The notes under the pieces were generated by a model. It saw only the letters and a program-made list of their open reading frames with translations. It had not been told where the DNA came from and made no database searches. The position numbers and the translations under genes are program-made. A DNA stretch of 32,000 nucleotides from Candidatus Babeliales bacterium (GTDB lineage Bacteria; Babelota; Babeliae; Babelales; JACPOV01), in assembly GCA_050250855.1 (NCBI GenBank), contig JBFWNW010000004.1:50919-82918 (forward strand). The letters are read 5' to 3'. Below are positions 91-11,686 of the stretch, one piece after another. Each line of letters opens with the position of its first letter. Within the stretch, counting starts at the first letter, position 1.

Positions 91-137
91 TTTGAATTAT
101 TTGTTTAGAGATAAAAGATTTAAAAGTTCTGTTTATT
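91..137 (-). repeat. About 45-nt copy of the 3-prime end of ankyrin gene 982..1860, lying across and downstream of the stop codon of CDS 133..954
   Basis: tttgaattatttgtttagagataaaagatTtaaaagttcTgtt-tatt (91-137) matches tttgaattatttgtttagagataaaagatCtaaaagttcGgttctatt (976-1023). Read on the minus strand it would encode TELLNLLSLNK*, compared with the real C-terminus TELLDLLSLNK*. Confidence 0.8.
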
Positions 138-954
138 CAAATACACCTTTTACGCAGCAGGTACATGGAAAAAATAACCAACCATAAAACGTTTTGCCTT
201 CTTCAAAATTTCTTTTTCCAGTAGAATCATATTTGTCATGACAACAGTCATGTGCTATTAGAGAGCCCACACAGCAAAGAGGGCAAAAGATCAGTTGTGT
301 GGCGGTACGTGCACTACACATAAGAAGCCATATTCCGGTGCCTAAATAGTATTTTCTTGATTTTTTATATTCTTCATAATTTCCATGTTCCAATGTACTA
401 GAAGAAGCGATGCCATATTTTTGTTTAATGCGTTTGGTGTAGTTTTCTTGGCAGATTTCATTCCATTTTTCTTCTTCTTCCGGCCATCGCATACACCATG
501 GCACGGTGCAAATACAGCAATCTTGGCAAGTATCCAAACAGTCGGATTGATAATCCATTTTTTTGTAAGCTTTTTGCATTGTTATTTGATCATTATTTTT
601 TTGAGCAATTTCAATAATTTTTTTTGCATTTTTTGGTGTTAATCTTAAATGTTGAGCAAGAAGCTTTTCAAGTTTGGGACTTCTTGAGTTTGAGAGTGGC
701 TCAAGGTTGCTACACAATGTATGAAAATGCTTATTAGTTTTTGCCATTGCTTTAATTGTTTTTAAACTATCTTCACTGTCAGTGGCAATATATTCTAAGA
801 TGTGCAGTTGCACAGGAAGCGGCACCTCATTCAGATAATCATACGCAACTATTTCTTGTTTTGAATCTTTTAACAAAGGCGTAGTTTCTGATGTCATTGC
901 ATTAAAAGAATATGCTGCGGTAATTATTGTTAGGTACGTTATACATTTATTCAT
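133..954 (-). CDS. Hypothetical secreted protein with an F-box-like motif and a Cys-rich C-terminal half
   Basis: 273-aa ORF with an ATG start and signal-like N-terminus MNKCITYLTIITAAYSFNA. The segment LPVQLHILEYIATDSEDSLKTIKAMAKTNKHFHTL fits the loose F-box pattern LPxxLxxxILxYL...K.F..L. There are about 16 Cys in the last ~135 aa (DCCICTVPWC, FCPLCCVG, HDCCH, PCTCCVKG) and a terminator downstream. Confidence 0.75.
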   Translation of the reverse strand: MNKCITYLTIITAAYSFNAMTSETTPLLKDSKQEIVAYDYLNEVPLPVQLHILEYIATDSEDSLKTIKAMAKTNKHFHTLCSNLEPLSNSRSPKLEKLLAQHLRLTPKNAKKIIEIAQKNNDQITMQKAYKKMDYQSDCLDTCQDCCICTVPWCMRWPEEEEKWNEICQENYTKRIKQKYGIASSSTLEHGNYEEYKKSRKYYLGTGIWLLMCSARTATQLIFCPLCCVGSLIAHDCCHDKYDSTGKRNFEEGKTFYGWLFFPCTCCVKGVFE

Positions 955-975: not shown

Positions 976-1023
976 TTTGAATTATTTGTTTAGAGATAAA
1001 AGATCTAAAAGTTCGGTTCTATT
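976..1023 (-). repeat. Partner copy of the 3-prime-end module (the authentic C-terminus of the ankyrin gene plus 6 nt downstream)
   Basis: See feature 91..137. About 45 nt are shared, with 2 substitutions and a 1-nt indel. Confidence 0.8.
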
Positions 1024-1860
1024 GTTTTCTGATATAAATTTTGTAAAATTTACTACATGATCAGCAGCAGATTCATTAAATTTATTTTTTAATGATGGAT
1101 TTGCACCATGTTTTAACAATAACTGTATAATAGCAACTACATCTTTTTGAGTGAGTACACTTGCTTTTTGTGTGACACGCATTAAAGGCGTGGTCTCATT
1201 ATTATCAGTTGTATTACAATCAGCATTCCAAGCAAGAAGCTGTTCTACGGCTTTTGTATGAAGACCCCAGACTGCCCAATGCAGAGCGGTTTGACCAAAA
1301 GTATCTTTTTGATTAATAAGACATTTTTTTGTGCCAAAAAGAAGTTTCATGATTTCAAGCTTGCCAGCTCCAGAGGCCCACTGAAAAGGAGTTTTTCCTT
1401 CAACGCCTCCTAGTTCAGGATTTGCGCCAGCATCAAGAAGAAGCTGTACAATATCAGTATGTCCTTTGTAACTTGCCCATGCAAGAGGAGTTTGTCCTTT
1501 GTTATTACGTGCATTTATTTGTACTTTTGGTTGTTGTAGCAAGAGCTCAACAACTTTTTTTTGGTTATTGCTAGCAGCCCAATGTAAAGCAGTTTCGCCA
1601 CGTTTATCTGTGTTGTTTATTATAGATGGACTATCGATAAGCCATTCTTGGACCGTATCATAGTGACCATGACCAGCTGCCCATTGAATAGTTATATCAT
1701 CAAACTTTTCTACCATGGGTTTTTGTTCATAAAAATTCTGGCTCGTTTTAGCTTGAGGCATATATTTTTGTTGCGCTCGAGAAAGTTTTCTTTCCATAGC
1801 TTGCATTGATCCAGCAACAACAAGAAGGAAAAGAAGGGGATATTTTGTATAAGTATTCAT
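982..1860 (-). CDS. Ankyrin-repeat protein with an N-terminal signal peptide
   Basis: About six ANK repeats read by eye: GETALHWAASNNQKKVVELLL, GQTPLAWASYKGHTDIVQLLLDAGANP, GKTPFQWASGAGKLEIMKLL, GQTALHWAVWGLHTKAVEQLLAWNADCN and IIQLLLKHGANPSLKN. Signal-like MNTYTKYPLLFLLVVAGSMQA. Confidence 0.9.
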   Translation of the reverse strand: MNTYTKYPLLFLLVVAGSMQAMERKLSRAQQKYMPQAKTSQNFYEQKPMVEKFDDITIQWAAGHGHYDTVQEWLIDSPSIINNTDKRGETALHWAASNNQKKVVELLLQQPKVQINARNNKGQTPLAWASYKGHTDIVQLLLDAGANPELGGVEGKTPFQWASGAGKLEIMKLLFGTKKCLINQKDTFGQTALHWAVWGLHTKAVEQLLAWNADCNTTDNNETTPLMRVTQKASVLTQKDVVAIIQLLLKHGANPSLKNKFNESAADHVVNFTKFISENNRTELLDLLSLNK

Positions 1861-2024: not shown

Positions 2025-3662
2025 TTACAGACTTCTGGTTGCTACAAAGATAGGCAATTTTCCCTCTGCGCGCAAAGTTCCTTTAATAACATGAGCAACG
2101 GTATTAAATGCATCAACATCATTTTCATAGCCCATAATAAGAGCATCAGGTTGTAATTCTAAGAATAAGGGAATGCTATACGGTGTGCCAAAAAGAGCAA
2201 TGATAACTGTTTTGCCCGATAAGTTTTTTAAGAATGTTAAAAATTCAAGGGAAAAACCATAGAGCTGTTTATTCTTTTCTGGGGCACAGGTAACAATAAT
2301 TGTTTGATAGTTTTTAGTAAGCGCGGCACATTTAGGTATAGTTTCAGATGCTACGGTAAAAGAGGGTATTTCTAATATTCTGTCAAACATACTGTTGTGT
2401 GGCGTGCAATGAAAAATGCACGTATTTTCAGTATACGCGAGCGGCAGCATATTATTATTGCATATGAGTGTAATAGCTTTTTCAAAGGCCATTTTTTTCA
2501 GCTGACAGGCAGAAGCGTCATGTATGCGCGCTAAAGCTTGTTTTTCATCAATAAATTTTTCTTTATTCAGGTGAAGTTTTTCTTTTATCCGTAACAATTT
2601 AAGAACTTTTTTATTAACCTTTTTTTCTGAAAGTATACCCTCTGTAACAGCTTGTTCAAGATAGGCTATAGTTTCTGGGACTAAAATAGGACAGAGCAAA
2701 ATATCGTTACCCGCTTGTAGTGCTTTCAATGCAACCTCTTGCGCTGAATAATGATTGGTAAGTGCTTTCATGCCCAAGCCATCAGTGAATACAAGGCCTT
2801 TAAAGCCAAGTTCTTTTTGCAGAATATTTGTTACGACATTTCCAGAAAGGCTTGCTGGTAACGAATCATCAAAAGCAGGAATAAGAAGATGAGCATTCAT
2901 AACAGCAGCAACACCAGCATCAATAAGTTGTTTGAAGGGGTAAAGTTCTTGCGCGTGCAGTTCATCTTTATTTTTTAAAATAGTTGGCAAGTGATAATGT
3001 GAATCAAGATTAGTGTCACCATGCCCTGGAAAATGTTTTGCGCAAGCAAGAATGCCGGCATCTTGCAAACCATGCATAAATGTTGCCCCGCACGTAGCAA
3101 CGTGTTCTTTCGTGTCGCCAAATGCACGATCATGAATTACAGGATTGTCAGGATTGGTATTACTATCAACAACCGGAGCAAAATTAATATGAACACCAAT
3201 AGCTTTGCATTGCTCCCCAATTTCTTTGCCAACGGCATAAAGCAATGCGTGGTCTTGCATAGCGCCAAGCGTAAGATTTTTAGGAAAGCGGACTGCATTT
3301 TCATGGCGCATAGCAAGGCCCCATTCGCAATCTTGTCCAACGAGTAGCGGAATTGCGCTCAATGCTTGGAATCTATTAGTAAGCTCTATTTGCCTACTGG
3401 TAGAACCTTTATATAAAAAAATAATGCCGCCAATGGAATACTGTTCTATGAGCAGCTCAAGATGATCATGATTGAGATTATATGCAGATCGTTGTTGCCA
3501 ATCAATTTGATCATGCGAAGGTGGTAAAACTGCTGCTGTTGTTGCCACCATGCATAATTGACCAATTTTTTGACGAAGTGAAAGGTGTGCAAGCGTTTCT
3601 TCTGCCCAACCGGCATGCGCGCTTGTTGAGAGTAGTATGATACTAAAAATATTTATTTTCAT
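2025..3662 (-). CDS. Glycoside hydrolase family 3 protein (beta-N-acetylhexosaminidase/NagZ-like, long secreted form)
   Basis: GH3 N-domain motifs are present: KHFPGHGDT, GGIIF, VGQDCEWGLAMR (the IDAEWG-type variant of DQEGG) and FTDGLGMKAL. I prefer the ATG at 3662 (MKINIFSIILLSTSAHA signal peptide) over the TTG at 3686 used by the ORF track. Confidence 0.85.
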   Translation of the reverse strand: MKINIFSIILLSTSAHAGWAEETLAHLSLRQKIGQLCMVATTAAVLPPSHDQIDWQQRSAYNLNHDHLELLIEQYSIGGIIFLYKGSTSRQIELTNRFQALSAIPLLVGQDCEWGLAMRHENAVRFPKNLTLGAMQDHALLYAVGKEIGEQCKAIGVHINFAPVVDSNTNPDNPVIHDRAFGDTKEHVATCGATFMHGLQDAGILACAKHFPGHGDTNLDSHYHLPTILKNKDELHAQELYPFKQLIDAGVAAVMNAHLLIPAFDDSLPASLSGNVVTNILQKELGFKGLVFTDGLGMKALTNHYSAQEVALKALQAGNDILLCPILVPETIAYLEQAVTEGILSEKKVNKKVLKLLRIKEKLHLNKEKFIDEKQALARIHDASACQLKKMAFEKAITLICNNNMLPLAYTENTCIFHCTPHNSMFDRILEIPSFTVASETIPKCAALTKNYQTIIVTCAPEKNKQLYGFSLEFLTFLKNLSGKTVIIALFGTPYSIPLFLELQPDALIMGYENDVDAFNTVAHVIKGTLRAEGKLPIFVATRSL

Positions 3663-3709
3663 AGTGCTTTCTGGTGCCGCGCTCAATCATTATTATCATT
3701 ATATTTCAA

Positions 3710-5232: not shown

Positions 5233-5358
5233 CCGTCCGAATGCTTCGACAGGCTCAGCACGAACGACTGTAATGTAACTTTTTTTTTATCCGTTCGCCC
5301 TGCGGTGCCCGGCGTAGCTTTACGCAAAGCCTGGGAGCTCGTCGAAGGGTACGAACGG
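5233..5358 (+). repeat. Composite palindromic repeat (family A: unit T2, spacer, unit T1), with T1 interrupted by a family-B hairpin
   Basis: T2 is ccgtccgaatgcttcgacaggctcagcacgaacg (5233-5266), followed by a 24-nt spacer. T1 is ccgttcgccctg[33-nt insert]agctcgtcgaagggtacgaacgg (5291-5358). T1 is homologous to the reverse complement of T2, so the pair can form a long hairpin. Confidence 0.85.
5303..5335. repeat. Family-B hairpin repeat nested inside a family-A unit
   Basis: cggTGCCCGGCGTAGCTTTacgcaAAGCCTGGG shares tgcccggcgtagcttt and aagcctggg with 7148-7180. It splits the otherwise conserved gccctg|agc core of unit T1. Confidence 0.75.
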
Positions 5359-5373
5359 AGAATTAATCGAAGC

Positions 5374-6651
5374 TCAATCTACATCACTATATTTTCTGGG
5401 TAAATTTTTTTCTCCCTGATGTCTACCAATATTATAGATATCTTCCAAAGTTGGTTTATATTCAGAGGCTGGGGTATTTTGTTCAATCTGTTGCAATGAT
5501 GTTTCAAGAGATGAAAGTTGTTTTTGGAGCGATTGAAGCTCAAGAGCAAGAGGACTTGCAGCAGGTGTTTCAATGGTAATAGGTTTTGTTACAGGAGCAG
5601 CCTTTACCGTTTTATCCCAACCATCTTTTCTTTGGTATATAAATAAATAGCCGCTTGCATTCGATTGGAGACCACCTTCAATTTGTTCTTTGTGCTGAGA
5701 GTCATTAATTGATACTTGAAGTACTTGCTGGTCATCGCAACGATACCAGATGTTATTTGGTTGACGAACATAAGCCCAGTAATGACCACCTTTTGCACCG
5801 CCACCTTGCACGATTACGCTTATTAATTCATAATCTGTCGGTTGGCCTTTTGTATTGACATAGTTTTTAATATCAAGTTTCTCAGGAATAGAAATTTGGT
5901 TGTGCAATTTTTGGCCAAAATTATCAAAGCGTTTTAGTGAAATAAAGAGAATTTCTGGTGCTTTGGACATTTTAAGTTGCTTGGTACAATCTGCGCGTTT
6001 TTCTTGTATGTTTGCTGCTGTTTCTTTCATACCTTTTTTGTATATGATGTATTCATCAATTTTTTCTATAGCAAAATAATTCTGTAGGCATTCTTGTAAG
6101 GAATTTAAGTTTTTTCCACTATTATTTTGTATCGGAAGGTCTAGGTTCTGGGCATCGTCTGTTTTAGGAACAGAAAAACCTTTATCTTGAGTTCTTGCAG
6201 GGCAATTGATCGTTGATATGAGTAAAAAATGAAAAAAATTTTTTATGGGCGAATTTTCTTTCTCTTTATCTGTGGCATATTTATTATGTAATTTTTCTGA
6301 AAATTTCCATATAAATTCAGTAGCATCTTCTTGCGAACCACAGACAGGACCTTCTTCCTCTGATTTCATCAGTTCGTATGCTTGTTTATCCAGTGTTCCC
6401 AAAGTACCACTGCATCCAAATGTTTGTTGAGGAGTATTTCTAAACTGAGTAATAAGAGTAATATAATTACCAACAATAGTTTGATCCGTTGGTTTTTGTT
6501 GTATAAGAAAATTAGTCAATGGGGTGATGTTGTATAATGCTTGAAGGCTGGCATTTAAAAAGCAGGTGTTGCCACAATTTTGCAGCTTATGCGGTTGAGC
6601 GAAGGCAGTTTGTGTTGCCAAACACATAATAAAAAGAATAAGTTTTTTCAT
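5374..6651 (-). CDS. Ubiquitin-specific protease (USP/UCH, peptidase C19)-like deubiquitinase with a signal peptide
   Basis: Cys box LQNCGNTCFLNASLQALY lies immediately after signal-like MKKLILFIMCLATQTAFA. Also present: QEDATEF motif, His box YELISVIVQGGGAKGGHYWAYV and WYRCDDQQV. A C-terminal P/A linker and heptad-like LQSLQKQLSSLETSLQQIEQ follow. Confidence 0.85.
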   Translation of the reverse strand: MKKLILFIMCLATQTAFAQPHKLQNCGNTCFLNASLQALYNITPLTNFLIQQKPTDQTIVGNYITLITQFRNTPQQTFGCSGTLGTLDKQAYELMKSEEEGPVCGSQEDATEFIWKFSEKLHNKYATDKEKENSPIKNFFHFLLISTINCPARTQDKGFSVPKTDDAQNLDLPIQNNSGKNLNSLQECLQNYFAIEKIDEYIIYKKGMKETAANIQEKRADCTKQLKMSKAPEILFISLKRFDNFGQKLHNQISIPEKLDIKNYVNTKGQPTDYELISVIVQGGGAKGGHYWAYVRQPNNIWYRCDDQQVLQVSINDSQHKEQIEGGLQSNASGYLFIYQRKDGWDKTVKAAPVTKPITIETPAASPLALELQSLQKQLSSLETSLQQIEQNTPASEYKPTLEDIYNIGRHQGEKNLPRKYSDVD

Positions 6652-6953
6652 AAAATCCCTTTTTTATAATGAATTATTTTTGAGCATACTATTTATTTTT
6701 TATGGTTTACAAGGATTTTAGGGCCCTACGGGCTAGTTTTTTTTGTTTATTATATTTTTTATATCTTAAGTTTTACGACCCCTATTCGGGGCAGAACCAG
6801 CCCCTTTTGCTTGTACAAAAGGGCTGGACAAAAATACACCAACATGCTGTTGGATCAGCTTGCCCGCTCAGACATCAACCACTCATCCTTCGGCTTTCAG
6901 CCTTGGCTTCAGGTCGCTGATTCGCTACCGGTGTGAATGTATAAATTATAATT

Positions 6954-7089
6954 CGTTCGCCCTGAGCCTGTCGAAGGGGTGCGAACAAAAAGTAAGGCCA
7001 TTCGTATGCTTCGACAAGCTCAGCACGAACGGAGTTAGTGTTGAGCATAGCGTTTACTACTGAGTTTATCGAAGTATCAGCACGAACGG
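6954..7089. repeat. Family-A repeat cluster (T1, spacer, T2, plus a rearranged partial unit)
   Basis: T1 is cgttcgccctgagcctgtcgaaggggtgcgaac (6954-6986). T2 is ttcgtatgcttcgacaagctcagcacgaacgg (7001-7032). The partial unit is atcgaagtatcagcacgaacgg (7068-7089). Confidence 0.85.
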
Positions 7090-7147
7090 TTAATTTTAAT
7101 ATTATGCACCTTGAAAGCTCATATGTTTGAGAGCTTCTCAGTTTTCT

Positions 7148-7180
7148 TGCCCGGCGTAGCTTTTTTAAGCGAAGCCTGGG
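7148..7180. repeat. Family-B hairpin repeat, free-standing copy
   Basis: tgcccggcgtagcttttttaagcgaagcctggg has an inner stem gctt/aagc and an outer stem cccgg/cctgg(g). It matches 5306-5335. Confidence 0.75.
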
Positions 7181-7372: not shown

Positions 7373-9427
7373 TTATTGAGCCCAATTTTTTTCTATTCCC
7401 TTTTTTAATAAAGAAACAACCACCTCTGTTTGGAGCGGGCTGCTCTCTACATTCCCATCCCAGGGTTCTTTGCGAGGCTCTTCAAGGCGTGAAATTCTGT
7501 TAAACCAAATGCCGTCATGCAAGCGCCAAAGATCACTAATTTTATGCACATCACTTTCTTGCTGTAGTTTAGAAAGTAGCAGGACAGGCAGCGAAATAAG
7601 ATGAATATTATTGTTGGCCAACTGAGTGTAGTATCGGTAAAATTCGTTATTAAATGTAGCCATAATAACCGGTTCGTGTGCAGAACTAAGACCCGCCAAA
7701 ATACCTTGATAAAACCAGTTGTGCGGTAAATTAATATTGTAAGCAGCAATAATACCGCCTGGTAGGATCGTATTAATCTGTTTTTTTATGAAAGTGCCAA
7801 GCTTGCGCGCTTGTTGCTGTAACGCTCCAAAATATTCGTCCATAAGTTTGTGCCGCATCAAGAAGCTGGTGCGTTCTTTGGTTGTTTTGAGTGTGAGCGC
7901 TTCTGGTTTGTTGGTAACTCTGCAATAACGGCTCCAAGATGTATCTGAAAAATCCATAAATTCGGTAAACTGTCCTGTTTGATCTTGTGCATGATACATT
8001 TCAAAATCAAAAAAGATGCCAGCAAGCGGTAAACCGCTACCAAGTGAACTTTGCCATGCAGTAACAAACTCTTTGAGTACGTCAAACAGCTCTGGCTTCC
8101 AAAATCCTTTAACATCAAAAGGGTTTGGTACTTTATTGTAGACGTTTCCATACATATCAGTTGCAGGATCGTGAGGGCGGTGTGTCGCTAAATTTCCCGT
8201 CAGTTCCATGCCAACAAAAAGCTTTGGCACAGGGAGTTTAAGCTCTGCTGCTTTTGTACGTAAAGAACTGGTGAACTTTTTAATGTCGCTAAAAAGTTCT
8301 TCCTTTTTTTCCTTGTTGACAGCTTTGGTGCTTAGATACGTTTCAGGATTGAGTTGCAGCCAGAGCATATTCATACCAGATTTTAGCAAGTGCTCAATTG
8401 CTTTGTCGTTATCAACGTATGGCGGAATACCCAGCCAACCGCACGCAACTCCTTTTTTTGTCCAATTATATGGTGGTGCCATTATGTTACGCTGATCGTG
8501 CACCGTGTTTCTAAGTTTGGCAAAAGATTGAGCAAGGAGTGCTACAGGAACAGCTTTTTTTTCAGTAGGTTTTAGATTTCCGGTTGCGCTTGCTTGTGCA
8601 CATTCATGCATAAATGCTTGGAGCCCTTCAAGAAGTGCGGTGCGCAAACGCAAATCTACAGGATTATACACAAAAGGATCTTTAATATCAGCAAACGTGA
8701 CCGCATTGTTGGTTGTTATGAAAAATTGGTTGCCCGTAGCGCGATTTTTAATATAAAAACCGAGAGGATAGATTGGCCTGAGTGCGCTATCAAACATGCA
8801 ATTTTGTAAGGGAAGTCCCGTTGCAACAAGTTCATTATTTTTTTTATAAAGCGGTTTGAGCTCAGTGAGTGCTGCCTCTTGTTTAGTATACGATGCGGGG
8901 AGCATAGAAGTATCATAAAGTCTACTTTTGCTTGCATCAGACTTGACCATATGCTGCAAGCCTTGCTTTAAAAAGGTATCAAAATCAGAAGACATGACCC
9001 GTTTTTCTTGTATGCCAAGGCGCCGTAACAGGTGGTGTGCAAGAGAAAAAGTTCCTATCGGATTTGCACCATGCGGCAAAAGAAGCATGATCGTTTTATT
9101 TTTTTGATCGCGAATTTTTTCAAAAAGTGTGAAAACATGCTGTAAAATTGGATTTTTTATGCTATGCTTATTGCTAAGTTCACGCGCTAGAGCATGAAAC
9201 ATTGAGTTATCAAGTGCAATAATAATAGTTTGATACTGCTCAATATCGGGCGATTCTAGGTGATAAAAATGATGATACGTTGGGCGCAAGCCTGCTTGGC
9301 GCGCAAACGTCATGAGCGTGTGGTAAACGGAGGGGTTCTGATTGCCAGTATCAAGAATTAACAGATTGTTGGATGCTGCGCTACTCACAAAAAAAGTACA
9401 GAGCATTAATGATAGAATGATTTTCAT
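7373..9427 (-). CDS. Large secreted hypothetical protein (684 aa), possibly glycoside-hydrolase-like
   Basis: Long uninterrupted ORF with an ATG start and signal-like MKIILSLMLCTFFVSSAAS. Segments GMNMLWLQLNPETYL, LFVGMELTGN and AGIFFDFEMYHAQDQ are reminiscent of TIM-barrel hydrolase strands. I recognise no diagnostic motif. Confidence 0.8.
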   Translation of the reverse strand: MKIILSLMLCTFFVSSAASNNLLILDTGNQNPSVYHTLMTFARQAGLRPTYHHFYHLESPDIEQYQTIIIALDNSMFHALARELSNKHSIKNPILQHVFTLFEKIRDQKNKTIMLLLPHGANPIGTFSLAHHLLRRLGIQEKRVMSSDFDTFLKQGLQHMVKSDASKSRLYDTSMLPASYTKQEAALTELKPLYKKNNELVATGLPLQNCMFDSALRPIYPLGFYIKNRATGNQFFITTNNAVTFADIKDPFVYNPVDLRLRTALLEGLQAFMHECAQASATGNLKPTEKKAVPVALLAQSFAKLRNTVHDQRNIMAPPYNWTKKGVACGWLGIPPYVDNDKAIEHLLKSGMNMLWLQLNPETYLSTKAVNKEKKEELFSDIKKFTSSLRTKAAELKLPVPKLFVGMELTGNLATHRPHDPATDMYGNVYNKVPNPFDVKGFWKPELFDVLKEFVTAWQSSLGSGLPLAGIFFDFEMYHAQDQTGQFTEFMDFSDTSWSRYCRVTNKPEALTLKTTKERTSFLMRHKLMDEYFGALQQQARKLGTFIKKQINTILPGGIIAAYNINLPHNWFYQGILAGLSSAHEPVIMATFNNEFYRYYTQLANNNIHLISLPVLLLSKLQQESDVHKISDLWRLHDGIWFNRISRLEEPRKEPWDGNVESSPLQTEVVVSLLKKGIEKNWAQ

Positions 9428-9540
9428 ACCGTGTCTTTCCTTATTTTTATCTTTAAAGACACTATAGTATAATAATCATTAACCAAGCAAGTTGTTTTTT
9501 GGCAAAGAAATATATGCAGTATTTTGTAGAAGGATCGATT

Positions 9541-10458
9541 ATGAAAAAATTATTAATGGTGATGTTTTTTAGCCTACCAGTCGGTACAAGTTGGGGGATG
9601 GAAACTGAGAAGCCAAAAACACAAACCAATTTCACTCAACGTACTAAGAAAAATACTAGTACTTCAACGTCTCAAAAAGCCATTACACCACGACATTTAG
9701 CTCAATTGGCAGAATTTGAAGTAGCTAAAGAAAATGCTCTCATGACAGAACGAAATAAACTCACCAATATGCATAATAGAATTTATAATCATAGCATGCA
9801 TGGTATGGATGATGGAATTGCTAAATTTTTTTCACAGATGCCACCAGTAATAGTTTTTGAGGGTTATAACCGTGCTTTTAATTCTGATTATCAGCTAAAA
9901 AAGTCTTTAGAGCATAATAATATTACTGCCAAAGCTCAAAAAGATGTATTAAGTGCTTTAGATGGAAGAAAATCTTCTTATATTGAACAGGAAAATGGGC
10001 AAGGGGTTGAAGCTCCAGAGTTAGCTGGACTTAGAAAATTGGTAGAAGAGGAGTGTTCTAATGAATTCAAAAAAAAATCGATGCTAGGAACATTAGATGC
10101 TATTGATGAAATTATTCATAGTACCAAATTTTATGCTCAACAAAATCCGCAGCAAATGAAAGAAAAATTAGCAGCATTTAATTATATGTTACAAGTAGAT
10201 CTTCCTGTTCTAGAGAAATCTAAAGAGAAAGCAACATTTATTGATGATCTTGAGAATACAGTAAAAAAGTTATATGCATTGGTTACAAAAGCTCCTACTA
10301 GTTTTGAAAAATTCACAAATGAAGTAGAAAATGGAAAGGCTCTTCCTTTGGCAGTTATAGGAACTGCAGTAGGGGTGGGCACTTTGTGTGTAGGTAAAAT
10401 GATTTATGATGCAGTTACTACTTCTGTTGAAGTTGCTATTGCTGCCACTGAAGGCTAA
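9541..10458 (+). CDS. Hypothetical secreted protein with a C-terminal hydrophobic anchor
   Basis: I prefer the ATG at 9541 (MKKLLMVMFFSLPVGTSWG signal, AGGA 7 nt upstream) over the TTG at 9499. The C-terminal TM-like segment is ALPLAVIGTAVGVGTLCVGKMIY. Confidence 0.7.
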   Translation: MKKLLMVMFFSLPVGTSWGMETEKPKTQTNFTQRTKKNTSTSTSQKAITPRHLAQLAEFEVAKENALMTERNKLTNMHNRIYNHSMHGMDDGIAKFFSQMPPVIVFEGYNRAFNSDYQLKKSLEHNNITAKAQKDVLSALDGRKSSYIEQENGQGVEAPELAGLRKLVEEECSNEFKKKSMLGTLDAIDEIIHSTKFYAQQNPQQMKEKLAAFNYMLQVDLPVLEKSKEKATFIDDLENTVKKLYALVTKAPTSFEKFTNEVENGKALPLAVIGTAVGVGTLCVGKMIYDAVTTSVEVAIAATEG

Positions 10459-10460
10459 TC

Positions 10461-11207
10461 TTACCAATATTTTTTGATAAAAAGTGTATGCGCTGCTTGC
10501 AATAACAGCAGCGCATAGCAAAATGCATATAAACTGCCATACAAAAGCTGCGCCATAGCTAAAGGTAGCTGATGCACTACAGCATTTTTTATGTCAATTA
10601 AAGCAAGATCAGGAAAACAGTAATACAGTGCTGTGCCAAATACATAAAAAATTCCTTCTTTGTGTGCAAGAAGCTCGTACCACGTATGATTTGTGTAAGC
10701 GATTGCATAAAAACTAAACGTTGCAAGGTATGCCATATTTACGGAAAGCAGTAAAGAAAAAAAGAAAGCAGCAGCAAGAAGCACCATACATTCAAGCCCA
10801 ATTCCAATAAAACCTGGTAGTATATGCCAGAACCATTGATCAGTCAGATAATACAGTACAACTACTGATACGCCATAAAATACAACTACAGCACTGCCCA
10901 GTGCACTAAAAAAGCCGGTAACGGTTTGCCAAAAAAAAGATGAGCGTGAGGTAGTGCATAAAAAAAAGTCATAACTTTGATAGAGCTTTTGTTTTTCAAA
11001 ATAAGGAATGGCGTATAAAAAGATTAAGCAAAAACAAAAGATCTGCAGAGCAAAAAAAAGAACATCAACTAAAACTTTTTCATAACTTCCTAAAGCACTA
11101 AGGGCTGCCGTGTTTCCCACACTGACGCAGCCCAGCATTATGAGCGCAGCAAGCTGTATGATGTTATGCGCATACAGCTGCTGTAGCGTAAAAATTAATA
11201 CGGTCAC
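10461..11207 (-). CDS. Polytopic integral membrane protein (about 6-7 TM, possibly ABC-2-permease-like)
   Basis: Hydrophobic throughout. The proposed GTG start at 11207 overlaps the TGA stop of the upstream ORF (GTGA). The track's start at 11288 would give an 85-nt overlap and a Cys/Arg-rich non-membrane leader. The start is uncertain because no SD is seen. Confidence 0.6.
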   Translation of the reverse strand: MTVLIFTLQQLYAHNIIQLAALIMLGCVSVGNTAALSALGSYEKVLVDVLFFALQIFCFCLIFLYAIPYFEKQKLYQSYDFFLCTTSRSSFFWQTVTGFFSALGSAVVVFYGVSVVVLYYLTDQWFWHILPGFIGIGLECMVLLAAAFFFSLLLSVNMAYLATFSFYAIAYTNHTWYELLAHKEGIFYVFGTALYYCFPDLALIDIKNAVVHQLPLAMAQLLYGSLYAFCYALLLLQAAHTLFIKKYW

Positions 11208-11686
11208 GAAGCAACAACAGGAGGATTCGTAGAATACGTAGTGCCGCCTGGATTTTCCAAAATAGCAGGAATTATTCCTTGCTTGCATAATGAATGAATA
11301 AGAAGGCGCACAAAATTATCAAGCTGTGCTTGCGTAGGGTTTCCGCGTTTAGTTAGTTCATTCGCTATGTTGAGGATGCTATCCACCATGCAGGTAGCGT
11401 TGAGTGTAATGTTTGCTTTATTATGACGGTCAATTAAAATTTTGCTAAAGCTTGCTAAAATACGCATAAATTGTCTGAAAATAGCAATATCTGTTTTACG
11501 TTCTTCATTACTTTCTAGCGTATCTTCTTGAGCAGTAGAAGTGCTTTTTAAGATTGCAACTAGTTCTTCAGAAAGAGAAAGCGTTGCCATAAGATTTTCA
11601 GCCGTTAGATCAGTTTCTTGCTCAGTAGCATGTATATTCGAATTCATACCTGCTACTAAAAGGCCTATACATAACATTCGTTTCAT
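11204..11686 (-). CDS. Hypothetical secreted protein (160 aa)
   Basis: ATG start with AAGGAG 6 nt upstream. Signal-like MKRMLCIGLLVAGMNSNIHA. No recognisable domain. Confidence 0.65.
   Translation of the reverse strand: MKRMLCIGLLVAGMNSNIHATEQETDLTAENLMATLSLSEELVAILKSTSTAQEDTLESNEERKTDIAIFRQFMRILASFSKILIDRHNKANITLNATCMVDSILNIANELTKRGNPTQAQLDNFVRLLIHSLCKQGIIPAILENPGGTTYSTNPPVVAS

Follow-up and report, generated by a model that had tools for sequence, protein, structure and literature searches.

The window analysed here is a stretch of 32,000 nucleotides (32 kb) from a Candidatus Babeliales MAG, and proteins 98–100% identical to those of the window are annotated as Candidatus Babeliales bacterium. 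On its minus strand lies an open reading frame predicted to encode an exported USP-type (peptidase C19) deubiquitinase of 425 residues, whose stop codon occupies 5374–5376 in the ORF list. The gene is real and, judged from its sequence, looks active. The gene and the elements around it are the following.

5374–6651, minus strand: whole USP gene (ORF list, Pfam UCH, AF2, Foldseek)
6656–6661, minus strand: Shine-Dalgarno-like AAGGGA, 4 nt 5' of the ATG, a putative site read from the sequence
6945–6974, minus strand: candidate USP promoter, TCGACA-18-TATAAT, 11/12 matches in a consensus scan; the –35 hexamer lies within a repeat arm
7373–9427, minus strand: exported 684-residue protein, the co-oriented and conserved upstream neighbour (synteny, AF2, Foldseek)
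5233–5358, no strand: one copy of a GC-rich hairpin repeat in the USP–SPFH spacer (repeat families D1–D8 and I1)
6946–7180, no strand: this dispersed repeat again, at least twice, in the 720 bp that separate the 684-residue protein gene from the USP gene (repeat families, 14-mer)

Promoter-like sites are no commoner in the consensus scan than in shuffled sequence, and the site at 6945–6974 is therefore a weak lead. The GC-rich repeats do flank the gene, as the preliminary description had it, and were located at 5233–5349 and 6946–7180, but they do not serve as the marker of a cassette, because the element is dispersed. It recurs in two more intergenic spacers of the window, near 24.5 kb and 27.7 kb, and its 14-mer core gives 9 matches at up to 2 mismatches where 0.07 are expected. 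Among the fetched loci the repeat occurs only in the 98% relative, L001, and the orthologous loci of distant relatives gave no match in an exact 14-mer search; in one of these, L002, the spacer from the 684-residue protein gene to the USP gene measures only 117 bp. The repeats belong to an intergenic element that is dispersed and specific to the lineage, and they have no functional tie to the USP. Their dispersal, the lack of an exact 14-mer in the distant orthologous loci and the conserved synteny rule out a mobile cassette.

The gene order RpoD–CNNM–...–684-residue protein–USP–SPFH–GH3 is kept in at least three independent, distant genomes (L002, L003 and L004), even where the USP is only 32–40% identical. 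The USP gene has been inherited vertically at this site. Its surroundings make it resemble a conserved core gene among envelope and housekeeping genes, which is less typical of effectors. Across the syntenic loci, the identity of 32–40% for the USP compares with 70–92% for the flanking SPFH, RpoD and CNNM, a disparity that suggests effector-like evolution.

A domain that is typically eukaryotic might be thought to come from mis-binned or chimeric host DNA, or from a recent horizontal acquisition in decay, and the related contig L001 does start inside the USP. That break arises because the repeats lie upstream of the gene. Recurrence of the gene in one bacterial setting across three or more independent, distant genomes, the bacterial Sec signal and Shine-Dalgarno-like site, a GC content of 0.351 and GC3 of 0.246 that fall inside the range of the neighbours, and the clear purifying selection on the catalytic residues all speak against an artefact. 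With the synteny and composition results this explanation is effectively refuted, and we give it almost no credence.

The USP belongs to a large metagenomic family, and those of its members that have names stem from bacteria parasitic inside protist cells. A signal peptide, USP core, linker and C-terminal Leu-heptad are common to 100 of the 150 best cluster representatives, and it is over these 100 members sharing the full architecture that the conservation figures below were taken. Attribution of the wider family to Dependentiae is based on four named MAGs, bacterial gene contexts and the literature. A profile search of genome contigs with the family alignment returned three loci, all from MAGs; the method needs exact back-translated patterns and is for that reason of little use for taxonomic breadth. 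When homologues were sought with the 100-sequence alignment among 8000 word-sharing candidates, mainly plant UBP15-type proteins were recovered, and no further named bacterial taxa. The family tree is a neighbour-joining tree without support values.

The ankyrin ORF that had been noted nearby is confirmed (982–1860, minus strand; Ank_2 E 3.7e-44, in three stretches). Since ankyrin genes make up about 10% of those in cultured Dependentiae, chance alone would be expected to place one within 6.6 kb. The F-box-like ORF of the preliminary description (133–954, minus strand) fared less well: zero Pfam families match it at E<=0.01 or at E<=10, so that its likeness to an F-box is confined to the motif LPVQLHILEYI. 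The proposal that these genes form a host-ubiquitin toolkit with the USP is consequently not sustained, the F-box having no profile support and the ankyrin ORF and ORF273 being kept only in the 98%-identical MAG. The 684-residue neighbour, modelled with an AF2 pLDDT of 90.9, combines a flavodoxin-like N-domain with a TIM-barrel, glycoside-hydrolase-like C-domain. Foldseek matches it weakly to GH50, GH42 and Cwp19 (E 1e-5, TM 0.25–0.36); sequence searches of Pfam and the PDB gave no match. The GH-like TIM-barrel fold led us to reject it as a ubiquitin-related partner. An anti-phage ubiquitin-like system was likewise considered and rejected, there being no PADLOC match and no E1, E2 or Ubl neighbours.

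Fold and active site of the USP core

The greater part of the predicted protein is a USP catalytic domain.

5599–6597, minus strand: USP catalytic core, residues 19–351, with Thumb, Fingers and Palm (Pfam, USP36 alignment, conservation, AF2/Foldseek)

Residues 23–339 match positions 3–254 of the 254 in the Pfam UCH profile PF00443 (E 8.6e-44; 150.5 bits against a cut-off of 23.9). The preliminary description had named lack of a significant profile hit as grounds for abandoning the assignment, and the match instead covers the full length. The UCH_1 profile matches more weakly (E 2.7e-07), and an NCBIfam scan of the USP gave no meaningful match. A sequence search of the PDB returned 98 matches, and all 60 listed are USP catalytic domains; the best is USP36 (1.7e-21), and USP15, USP2 and USP8 were also matched. 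The family profile finds USP15, USP4, USP8, USP2, USP18 and USP36 at 1e-41 to 1e-35, with the whole core covered. The AF2 model (pLDDT 77.8, pTM 0.75) superposes on USP18, USP2, USP12 and USP7, the structural comparison that had been called for, with target-normalised TM of 0.70–0.83 and Foldseek E of 3e-22 to 5e-21 over alignments of 330–390 columns, USP18 heading the matches. The assignment as a eukaryotic-type USP is thus upheld by the Pfam profile, the PDB sequence search, AF2 with Foldseek and family-wide conservation.

In the model the three-subdomain hand of Thumb, Palm and Fingers is formed. The Fingers are judged to be present from model β-strands at 142–240, read as the Fingers sheet, and from the length of the Foldseek alignments. 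Their zinc ribbon, composed of two CxxC knuckles, was not found, no CxxC occurring anywhere in the window protein. C150 alone aligns with the first Cys of knuckle 1 in USP36; C222 was rejected as a remnant zinc ligand, since it falls about six residues past the second knuckle in the same alignment. The zinc ribbon is frequent in USPs but does not define them, and is not known from USP7 or USP14. C150 and C222 form one of two covarying cysteine pairs in the family, the other being C26–C80.

All four motifs quoted in the preliminary description are present in the order given there. The Cys box, LQNCGNTCFLNASLQALY (residues 23–40), contains the catalytic Cys30 (codon 6562–6564), with the oxyanion Asn25 five residues before it, and N25-C-G-N-T-C30-F-L-N33 aligns with N-L-G-N-T-C-F-L-N of USP36. 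QEDATEF (residues 107–113) supplies the ubiquitin-tail box, Q107/D109. The His box, YELISVIVQGGGAKGGHYWAYV (residues 274–295), carries His290 (codon 5782–5784), and WYRCDDQQV (residues 302–310) carries Asp306 (codon 5734–5736) followed by the invariant Asp307. G289-H290-Y291 and W302-Y-R-C-D306-D307 agree with the patterns GHY and W-x-x-x-[DN]-D, and D306 would be the counterpart of USP7 D481.

Among the 100 family members, Cys30, Asn33, His290, W302 and Asp307 are each 100% conserved, Asp109 reaches 98%, Asn25 97% and Gln107 92%. Position 306 is Asn in 53% and Asp in 45%, and one or the other in 98%. The catalytic residues are, by this alignment, under clear purifying selection across the family. 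The motifs and their conservation support the earlier prediction that the Cys-His-Asp triad is intact. Two departures from the usual pattern were seen. Gln replaces the first His of the HxG in the His box, a residue otherwise conserved, both in the window protein and in 31% of the family, and an extra Cys four residues ahead of the catalytic Cys is found in 40 of 97 family sequences as against 1 of 75 eukaryote-type domains.

Signal peptide, export and C-terminal tail

The core is preceded by a predicted signal peptide and followed by a three-part tail.

6598–6651, minus strand: signal peptide, residues 1–18, MKKLILFIMCLATQTAFA, cut predicted after Ala18 (sequence rules, pLDDT <50)
5554–5598, minus strand: low-complexity linker of Pro, Ala, Thr and Lys, residues 352–366 (pLDDT <50 at 355–366; varies across the family)
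5476–5553, minus strand: family-specific leucine-heptad helix, residues 367–392 (helix in the AF2 model, conservation)
5377–5475, minus strand: lineage-specific C-terminal extension, residues 393–425 (alignment; low model confidence)

In MKKLILFIMCLATQTAFA, which QPHK follows, a positive n-region and a short hydrophobic core lead to A-x-A ahead of the predicted cut; by these rules the window protein has a Sec signal for signal peptidase I, consisting of MKK, then LILFIMCLATQTAF, then A16-F-A18 before Q19. F-I-M-C10 does not match the usual lipobox consensus. Residues 1–16 have pLDDT <50 in the AF2 model. Across the 100 members the net charge of the n-region is +2 in the median and reaches +1 or more in 93%, the uncharged core measures 16 residues in the median and never exceeds 22, a small residue occupies –1 (Cys–12) in 60%, and Pro stands at Cys–10 in 91%. 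The Sec-signal features are therefore kept across the family although the signal sequences diverge, and the Sec-type signal peptide of the preliminary description is borne out in the window protein and its relatives alike. The Cys box does come directly behind the cut, at a distance of 4–5 residues rather than the roughly 6 first given. Cleavage after Ala18 would let the mature enzyme begin 4 residues ahead of the first USP core element.

The closeness of the catalytic core to the hydrophobic segment, only 4–5 residues, and a –3 position that is often Leu, Phe or Ile across members instead of a small residue, could be explained if the segment were an uncleaved signal anchor holding the enzyme on a bacterial, vesicle or host membrane. 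Chlamydia Cdu1 and human USP30 are comparators for such tethered deubiquitinases. The strictly hydrophobic run of the window protein is about 9 residues, short for a membrane span, and the uncharged core in the family does not go beyond the 22 residues given above. The small –1 residue in 60% of members and the conserved Pro-Pro after the site resemble a classical cleavable signal, and an active site anchored 4 residues from the membrane would be sterically constrained. Tethering thus seems improbable to us.

A Sec signal by itself takes a protein only as far as the periplasm. The USP-fold enzyme might remain there and process a substrate of the bacterium itself, such as an envelope protein that ends in Gly-Gly. 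Such a role would suit a fixed, vertically inherited slot beside genes for exported or envelope proteins, namely the 684-residue GH-like protein, which has a signal peptide, SPFH/NfeD and a GH3 glycosidase, with Lgt farther on, and the covarying cysteine pairs together with the lost zinc knuckles hint that the protein folds in a compartment where conditions are oxidising. No bacterial protein of the periplasm is known to us as a ubiquitin-like substrate, however, and the apparatus for ubiquitin recognition is complete, with Fingers and a QxDAxEF tail-binding box conserved at 92–98%. The USP also diverges far faster than its envelope neighbours. Signal peptides are moreover the standard tag of eukaryote-like effector candidates in the phylum, being carried by 78% and 63% of ankyrin proteins in the two cultured relatives, and the type II-secreted USP TssM works in the host cytosol. 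A purely periplasmic function is accordingly unlikely.

No secretion-system genes, including those for type II secretion, occur within the 32-kb window, and the presence of a type II system in the genome is assumed from relatives. In Babela massiliensis type II was the only secretion system detected, and 79 of 126 ankyrin proteins have signal peptides; type II secretion was also reported for JCVI TM6SC1 (PMC4378268). Outer-membrane vesicles were observed in Chromulinavorax, where 44% of all CDS have a signal peptide and the share rises to 78% for ankyrin proteins (PMC6561590).

The tail agrees with the preliminary description, in which a P/A-rich linker and a heptad-like segment with no known USP counterpart had been recognised; these are residues 352–366 and 367–392. 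The linker varies across the family in both length and sequence. L368, L372, L375, L379, L382, L386 and I389 fill seven a/d positions of the heptad in succession, and L372, L375, L379 and L382 are each conserved in 82–85% of the 100 family members. In a limited sample, 150 ORFs drawn from the window and from related loci, the pattern is essentially confined to USPs, and the heptad was on this ground rejected as a general sorting tag of Dependentiae. A ubiquitin-binding motif of the UIM type was set aside as well, by eye, from the spacing: Ala at 0 and Ser/Thr at +5, as against Ala and then Ser at +4 in the UIM core. In the alignment the C-terminal extension is found only in the window protein and its 98% relative (P0001); P0002–P0012 end just past the heptad.

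Relation to known enzymes and proposed function

The bacterial deubiquitinases studied so far are, to our knowledge, almost all of the CE-clan or OTU type and are delivered by type III, IV or VI secretion. None of the biochemically characterised enzymes is a full-length bacterial USP of the kind found in the window. The closest precedent is genomic. Three secreted C19 hydrolases were listed for Babela massiliensis (TM6/Dependentiae) by Pagnier et al. 2015, Biol Direct (PMC4378268), and they share with the window protein the phylum, an obligate intracellular life in protists, the peptidase C19/USP domain, a predicted signal peptide and type II secretion as the proposed route. The likeness is one of description, the listing being that of a genome paper without architecture, family analysis or biochemistry. 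The window protein itself answers to this description of a Dependentiae secreted C19 enzyme in its genome, domain and predicted signal peptide. What the present analysis adds is the C-terminal Leu-heptad, the conserved place in the gene order, the pattern of cysteines and the extent of the family.

TssM of Burkholderia pseudomallei and B. mallei is the only characterised bacterial USP-class enzyme, and an atypical, fingerless one; it is secreted by type II secretion and active in the host cytosol (PMC10719079). It leaves the cell through the general secretory pathway followed by type II secretion, a finding that Hermanns et al. 2023 credit to Burtnick et al. 2014 (PMC10719079). Like the window protein it is a bacterial cysteine protease of the USP class whose triad is Cys/His/Asp, and its action on host ubiquitin and its independence of T3SS, T4SS and T6SS correspond to what is proposed for the window protein. 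In TssM the Fingers subdomain is deleted internally, a Littlefinger loop is present, and an Ig-like domain lies at the N terminus (PMC10719079). In contrast, the window protein has a canonical Fingers-containing core and a C-terminal leucine-heptad helix, and no N-terminal domain; with the Cys box 4–5 residues past the signal peptide, an Ig domain could not be accommodated. The best 60 of 108 PDB matches of the family profile do not include TssM.

Eukaryotic USPs (USP2, USP7, USP12/46, USP15/4, USP18 and USP36) have the same fold, order of boxes and ubiquitin-tail box, at 18–25% identity and HMM E of 1e-41 to 1e-29. The window protein differs from them as a minimal single domain of about 330 residues that is devoid of UBL, DUSP, ZnF-UBP and MYND domains, and in its bacterial signal peptide, lack of CxxC knuckles, QxG in place of HxG, and extra Cys. 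No eukaryotic subfamily stands out as donor. The preliminary description had cited Amoebophilus as precedent, and predicted USPs are indeed attributed to Candidatus Amoebophilus asiaticus by Schmitz-Esser 2010, as cited by Selberherr et al. 2022 (PMC8831229), where Aasi_1805 is given as up-regulated early in infection; the Babela enzymes, from the same phylum and reported in 2015, are the closer precedent. Amoebophilus resembles the present case as an amoeba symbiont with eukaryote-like C19 domain proteins, but it belongs to Bacteroidota, and T6SS-like delivery is discussed for it (PMC8831229). The 'Bacteroidetes' MAG match in our searches (L007) is only 26% identical.

The gene probably encodes a catalytically competent, full-length USP-type deubiquitinase of obligate intracellular Babeliales that is exported by Sec, released, and acts on host conjugates. 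The computations show the USP fold, an intact and conserved active site, the signal peptide, the family architecture and the vertical inheritance; that the enzyme is exported past the periplasm, what it cleaves and what its helix does we infer. From the sequence, the cleavable Sec signal would carry the protein across the inner membrane, with signal peptidase I cutting past Ala18. By analogy with the relatives described in the literature, release could then proceed by type II secretion or in outer-membrane vesicles, delivering the USP to the cytoplasm of the protist host or to the host-facing side of the compartment that holds the parasite. There, as homology suggests, Cys30, His290 and Asp306 with Asn25 would hydrolyse ubiquitin, or a close RGG-tailed modifier, off host conjugates. 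Action on host ubiquitin or a ubiquitin-like modifier is a reasonable expectation that fits the genomics of the phylum (PMC4378268, PMC6561590). Ubiquitin might plausibly be stripped from the parasite surface, the surrounding membrane or host regulators, and ubiquitin-dependent degradation or autophagy would thereby be blunted. The Leu-heptad helix, more speculatively, would most likely serve oligomerisation or docking to a coiled-coil partner of the host.

The best Foldseek matches are to USP18, an ISG15-specific USP, the HxG histidine is replaced by Gln in this subfamily, and the family is about equidistant from all eukaryotic USP subfamilies. These features might point to an enzyme specific for NEDD8 or another host modifier, or to an esterase on non-protein ubiquitin conjugates, an activity that has reportedly been found later for TssM. 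The Foldseek E values for USP18, USP2, USP12 and USP7 are practically equal, however, the residues that read the LRGG tail are conserved, and protists, as far as we know, have no ISG15. Such a specificity therefore appears rather improbable. It would refine the proposed action on host conjugates rather than contradict it.

The gene and about 100 cluster-level relatives show that bacteria of the Babeliales type possess a minimal USP core, canonical in form and fitted with a Sec signal, whose place in the chromosome has stayed the same across deep divergence. The picture is qualitatively unchanged, secreted C19 hydrolases of the phylum being known from the 2015 genome analysis. The deubiquitinase field nevertheless gains a compact (about 330-residue) full USP for work on linkage and modifier specificity, and the findings lend support to a reliance of Dependentiae on Sec/type II or vesicle delivery in host manipulation. 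The enzyme may further provide a case of how a eukaryotic fold that contains zinc and works in the cytosol is adapted to crossing a periplasm with oxidising conditions.

A more far-reaching interpretation is conceivable, and we advance it only tentatively, regarding it as doubtful. The family may represent a large, old, bacterial-specific subclass of complete USPs re-engineered for export. An obligatory Sec signal would have been fused directly to the Cys box, the covarying pairs C150–C222 and C26–C80 would replace the Fingers zinc site as periplasmic disulfides, and the leucine-zipper module would provide for oligomerisation or host targeting. A backdoor Cys four residues from the catalytic Cys could keep the enzyme reversibly inactive until it reached the reducing host cytosol. 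If this were so, Dependentiae would carry a redox-gated class of deubiquitinase, delivered by type II secretion or vesicles, distinct from both eukaryotic USPs and TssM and inherited vertically since one ancient acquisition.

The predicted USP and its family

The reading frame at 5374-6651 on the minus strand lies where the preliminary description had placed it. It encodes 425 residues from the first possible ATG, with a Shine-Dalgarno-like AAGGGA 4 nt upstream of the start codon, and contains all of the USP motifs quoted earlier, in the order stated. The Pfam profile UCH (PF00443; cut-off 23.9 bits) matches the protein with an E value of 8.6e-44 and 150.5 bits, over profile positions 3-254 of 254, and UCH_1 gives a second match (E 2.7e-07). 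A sequence search of the PDB returned 98 matches; all 60 of those listed are USP catalytic domains, the best being USP36 (E 1.7e-21). By sequence, the profile and PDB matches are far above chance level.

An AlphaFold2 model built from 13 family sequences has a mean pLDDT of 77.8 and a pTM of 0.75, with low confidence at residues 1-16, at 355-366 and in the final ~30 residues. Foldseek comparison of the model with the PDB gives E values of about 1e-21 to 3e-22 over 330-390 aligned columns, and target-normalised TM-scores of 0.70-0.83 for USP18, USP2, USP12, USP7, USP15 and USP47. Superposition of this extent implies that the Thumb, Palm and Fingers are all present. Pfam, the PDB search and the model thus support the core of the earlier reading, a USP with a signal peptide and a predicted Cys-His-Asp triad.

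Alignment with USP36, together with the known USP7 numbering, assigns predicted roles to Asn25 (oxyanion residue), Cys30 (nucleophile), His290 (general base) and Asp306 (third triad residue). Next to Asp306 lies the invariant Asp307, and Gln107 and Asp109 form part of the ubiquitin-tail box. The sequence contains no CxxC zinc knuckles.

A profile search with the USP family recovered 46,516 USP-like proteins among 1.84 billion cluster representatives. In 100 of the best 150 of these, a signal-like N-terminal peptide is followed by the USP core; the catalytic cysteine lies at position 33 and the protein is 408 aa long (medians). No description of this conserved architecture was found in the searchable literature.

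Conservation of window USP positions among 100 family sequences
Cys30, Asn33, Gln37, Leu276, His290, Trp302, Asp307: 100%
Asn25: 97%
Asp109: 98%
Position 306: Asn 53%, Asp 45%
Heptad leucines L372, L375, L379, L382: 82-85% each

The conservation of the heptad leucines stands out because family members share as little as 23-45% pairwise identity with the window USP. In the latter, L368, L372, L375, L379, L382, L386 and I389 occupy seven consecutive a/d positions. Of 150 ORFs taken from the window and related loci, essentially only the USP orthologues show the pattern, which in this sample marks it as a family feature and speaks against a general sorting tag. Our best guess is that the heptad mediates oligomerisation or docks the enzyme onto a coiled coil of the host. 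Beyond it the window USP has a 33-residue tail that is missing from eleven other aligned family members (P0002-P0012).

Four giant predicted proteins among the search results (P0016, P0017, P0021 and P0050; 1,900-3,200 aa) carry 7-10 USP-domain stretches and no signal peptide, and the N-terminus of P0016 resembles that of mammalian USP17/DUB3. Gene prediction in eukaryotic assemblies has probably fused tandem arrays of genes here, and the four are unrelated to the bacterial family.

Predicted export and a possible route to the host

Aligned on the catalytic cysteine, the 100 family sequences show a short n-region (median 4 residues) whose net charge has a median of +2 and is +1 or higher in 93%. 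The length of the uncharged core lies between 15 and 18 residues in the interquartile range, with a median of 16 and a maximum of 22. The predicted -1 site, Cys-12, is small in 60% (Ala 30, Ser 16); proline occupies Cys-10 in 91% and a second proline Cys-9 in 56%. The implied signal peptide has a median length of 22 residues. The signal sequences themselves vary, while charge, core length and cut-site properties are kept. This pattern is characteristic of a working, cleavable Sec signal, which the rules predict for the family and which agrees with the Sec-type peptide proposed earlier. The predicted cut in the window USP is A16-F-A18|Q19, and the residues ahead of Cys10 depart from the lipobox consensus. 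The few differences from the 98%-identical protein of the related locus L001 cluster in the signal peptide (IHIIMCMATQNAIA versus LILFIMCLATQTAFA), and these sequences show a segment that drifts quickly yet stays hydrophobic.

Most window ORFs that lack a housekeeping annotation have an MKK-plus-hydrophobic, Sec-like start (for example the ankyrin-repeat ORF 982-1860, 2025-3686, 9499-10458, 11204-11686, 17651-18190, 18195-18581, 28413-28886 and 30808-31605), as do a 273-aa protein (ORF273) and a 684-aa protein. This agrees with Chromulinavorax, where 44% of the proteome carries signal peptides (PMC6561590). Ankyrin proteins have one in 78% of cases in Chromulinavorax (PMC6561590) and in 79 of 126 in Babela (PMC4378268). 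A signal peptide is the normal tag of effector-like proteins in Dependentiae. The window DNA itself belongs to Dependentiae/TM6, since the USP of highest identity (98%) and a protein 100% identical to the 684-aa one are both annotated to Candidatus Babeliales MAGs. Cultured Dependentiae live as obligate parasites inside the cells of amoebae and flagellates (PMC4378268, PMC6561590).

Most probably the USP would be exported by Sec, cut by signal peptidase after Ala18 and released through type II secretion and/or outer-membrane vesicles. Once in the host, it would act as a hydrolase of ubiquitin or ubiquitin-like conjugates. No secretion system other than type II was found in Babela (PMC4378268), vesicles have been seen in Chromulinavorax (PMC6561590), and TssM provides a precedent for a type II-secreted USP acting in the host cytosol (PMC10719079).

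In raw counts that ignore kinship, a cysteine lies four residues before the catalytic one in 40 of 97 signal-peptide USPs and in 1 of 75 eukaryote-type domains; all 26 carriers of C80 also have C26; and C150 and C222 covary, both being present in 51 sequences, neither in 32 and just one in 17. Putative cysteine pairs replacing the zinc site would fit folding in an oxidising compartment, and redox gating of the active site is a possibility.

The window USP is of a kind already recognised in silico: for Babela massiliensis, Pagnier et al. listed three C19 hydrolases as secreted in 2015 (PMC4378268). USPs are also predicted in Amoebophilus (PMC8831229). It differs clearly from TssM, the only characterised bacterial USP, which is fingerless and has an Ig-like domain (Hermanns et al., PMC10719079), neither feature being found here. 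Nothing in the result would astonish a specialist. As a clean and compact candidate, however, the protein would suit a first biochemical study both of a canonical bacterial USP and of Sec-route effector delivery in Dependentiae.

Genomic setting and origin

The window and loci of three other genomes have the same succession of genes: RpoD, CNNM/CorC, small ORFs, the exported 684-aa protein, the USP, SPFH on the opposite strand, NfeD and GH3. The USPs of those loci are 32-40% identical to that of the window, and SPFH, RpoD and CNNM 70-92%; the USP has evolved several times faster than its neighbours without changing position. Its GC content (0.351) and GC3 (0.246) fall inside the range of neighbouring genes. 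More distant family members occupy other bacterial contexts, such as FtsW/Mur ligase/IleRS or TGT/Vut_1/SpoU. In a rough NJ tree one split gathers 22 of 26 long eukaryote-type proteins and none of 98 signal-peptide USPs. The family profile gives similar scores to many eukaryotic USP subfamilies, so that no donor lineage can be named. Together these observations favour an old acquisition and speak against a recent or mobile insertion; we argue that the gene was acquired long ago and then inherited vertically, with radiation in bacteria.

The observation of a USP is confirmed and its core interpretation supported, and two additions to it, a repeat-bounded cassette and a ubiquitin toolkit, are not. 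The toolkit was to join the USP with an F-box-like ORF and an ankyrin ORF. The ankyrin ORF is genuine by Pfam. Ankyrin proteins make up roughly a tenth of genes in cultured Dependentiae (98 in Chromulinavorax, PMC6561590; 126 in Babela, PMC4378268), so one within 6.6 kb of the USP is expected by chance. ORF 133-954 (minus strand; 273 aa, signal-like N-terminus) resembles an F-box by eye only, in its LPVQLHILEYI motif; a Pfam search up to E<=10 gave neither an F-box nor any other family. Its C-terminal half is very cysteine-rich and partly hydrophobic (CCICTVPWC, CPLCCVG, CTCCVKG). Its adjacency to the ankyrin gene is conserved only in the near-identical MAG, and in the loci compared neither gene is syntenic with the USP outside that MAG.

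The upstream neighbour, the 684-aa protein (7373-9427, minus strand), is conserved and exported and has an invariant FDFEMYHA motif. Its AlphaFold model (pLDDT 90.9) combines a flavodoxin-like N-domain with a TIM-barrel C-domain; similarity to GH50, GH42 and Cwp19-type glycosidases is weak (Foldseek E 1e-5, TM 0.25-0.36). A ubiquitin-related role was rejected on this fold and likeness. The 28 homologues, some on contigs >1 Mb, are annotated "hypothetical" where named. The modelled fold makes the protein a candidate exported glycan or envelope enzyme, possibly of a new glycoside-hydrolase-like family.

Elsewhere in the window three tandem paralogues, 204-210 aa, charged and probably helical, have near-identical signal peptides (MKKCLALLLLLSL[A/S]AAQA) and mature parts 37-42% identical:
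21335-21949, minus strand, first paralogue
21977-22600, minus strand, second paralogue
22628-23260, minus strand, third paralogue
None has a Pfam match. The trio looks like a locally expanding secreted family, hence candidate effectors. ORFs 10461-11288 and 11204-11686 (both minus strand) overlap by 85 nt. The downstream one encodes a polytopic membrane protein, and the start listed for it probably lies too far 5'. Both ORFs have counterparts at 37-45% identity in L002 and L003, which are syntenic loci.

Flanking repeats and a promoter-like site

The repeats reported on both sides of the USP are real. They are copies of a dispersed ~90-nt GC-rich hairpin element (arms TTCGACAGGCTCAGCACGAACGG / CCGTTCGCCCTGAGCTTGTCGAA), in a window that otherwise has 37% GC. 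The element lies in four intergenic spacers, a distribution that speaks against the cassette reading:
5233-5358, hairpin repeat
6946-7180, hairpin repeat
about 24497-24595, hairpin repeat
about 27712-27800, hairpin repeat
The 14-mer core has 9 matches at <=2 mismatches (0.07 expected). Among the fetched loci the element recurs only in the 98%-identical MAG, and it resembles a palindromic element known from many bacterial phyla. Spurious ORFs across it give SLSKG- or FDKLSTNG-like peptides. The related contig (L001 1-1266) breaks at the USP 5' end, inside the signal-peptide codons, as expected if repeats interrupt assembly.

The spacer upstream of the USP measures 720 bp in the window and 117 bp in L002. 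About 295 nt upstream of the start, a sigma-70-like site, TCGACA-18-TATAAT (6974-6945, minus strand; 11/12), has as its -35 hexamer one arm of the dispersed repeat. The site is a weak lead as a promoter candidate; repeat insertion may either have supplied the USP promoter or have displaced it. Between this site and the USP start there is a terminator-like hairpin (6853-6839, minus strand).
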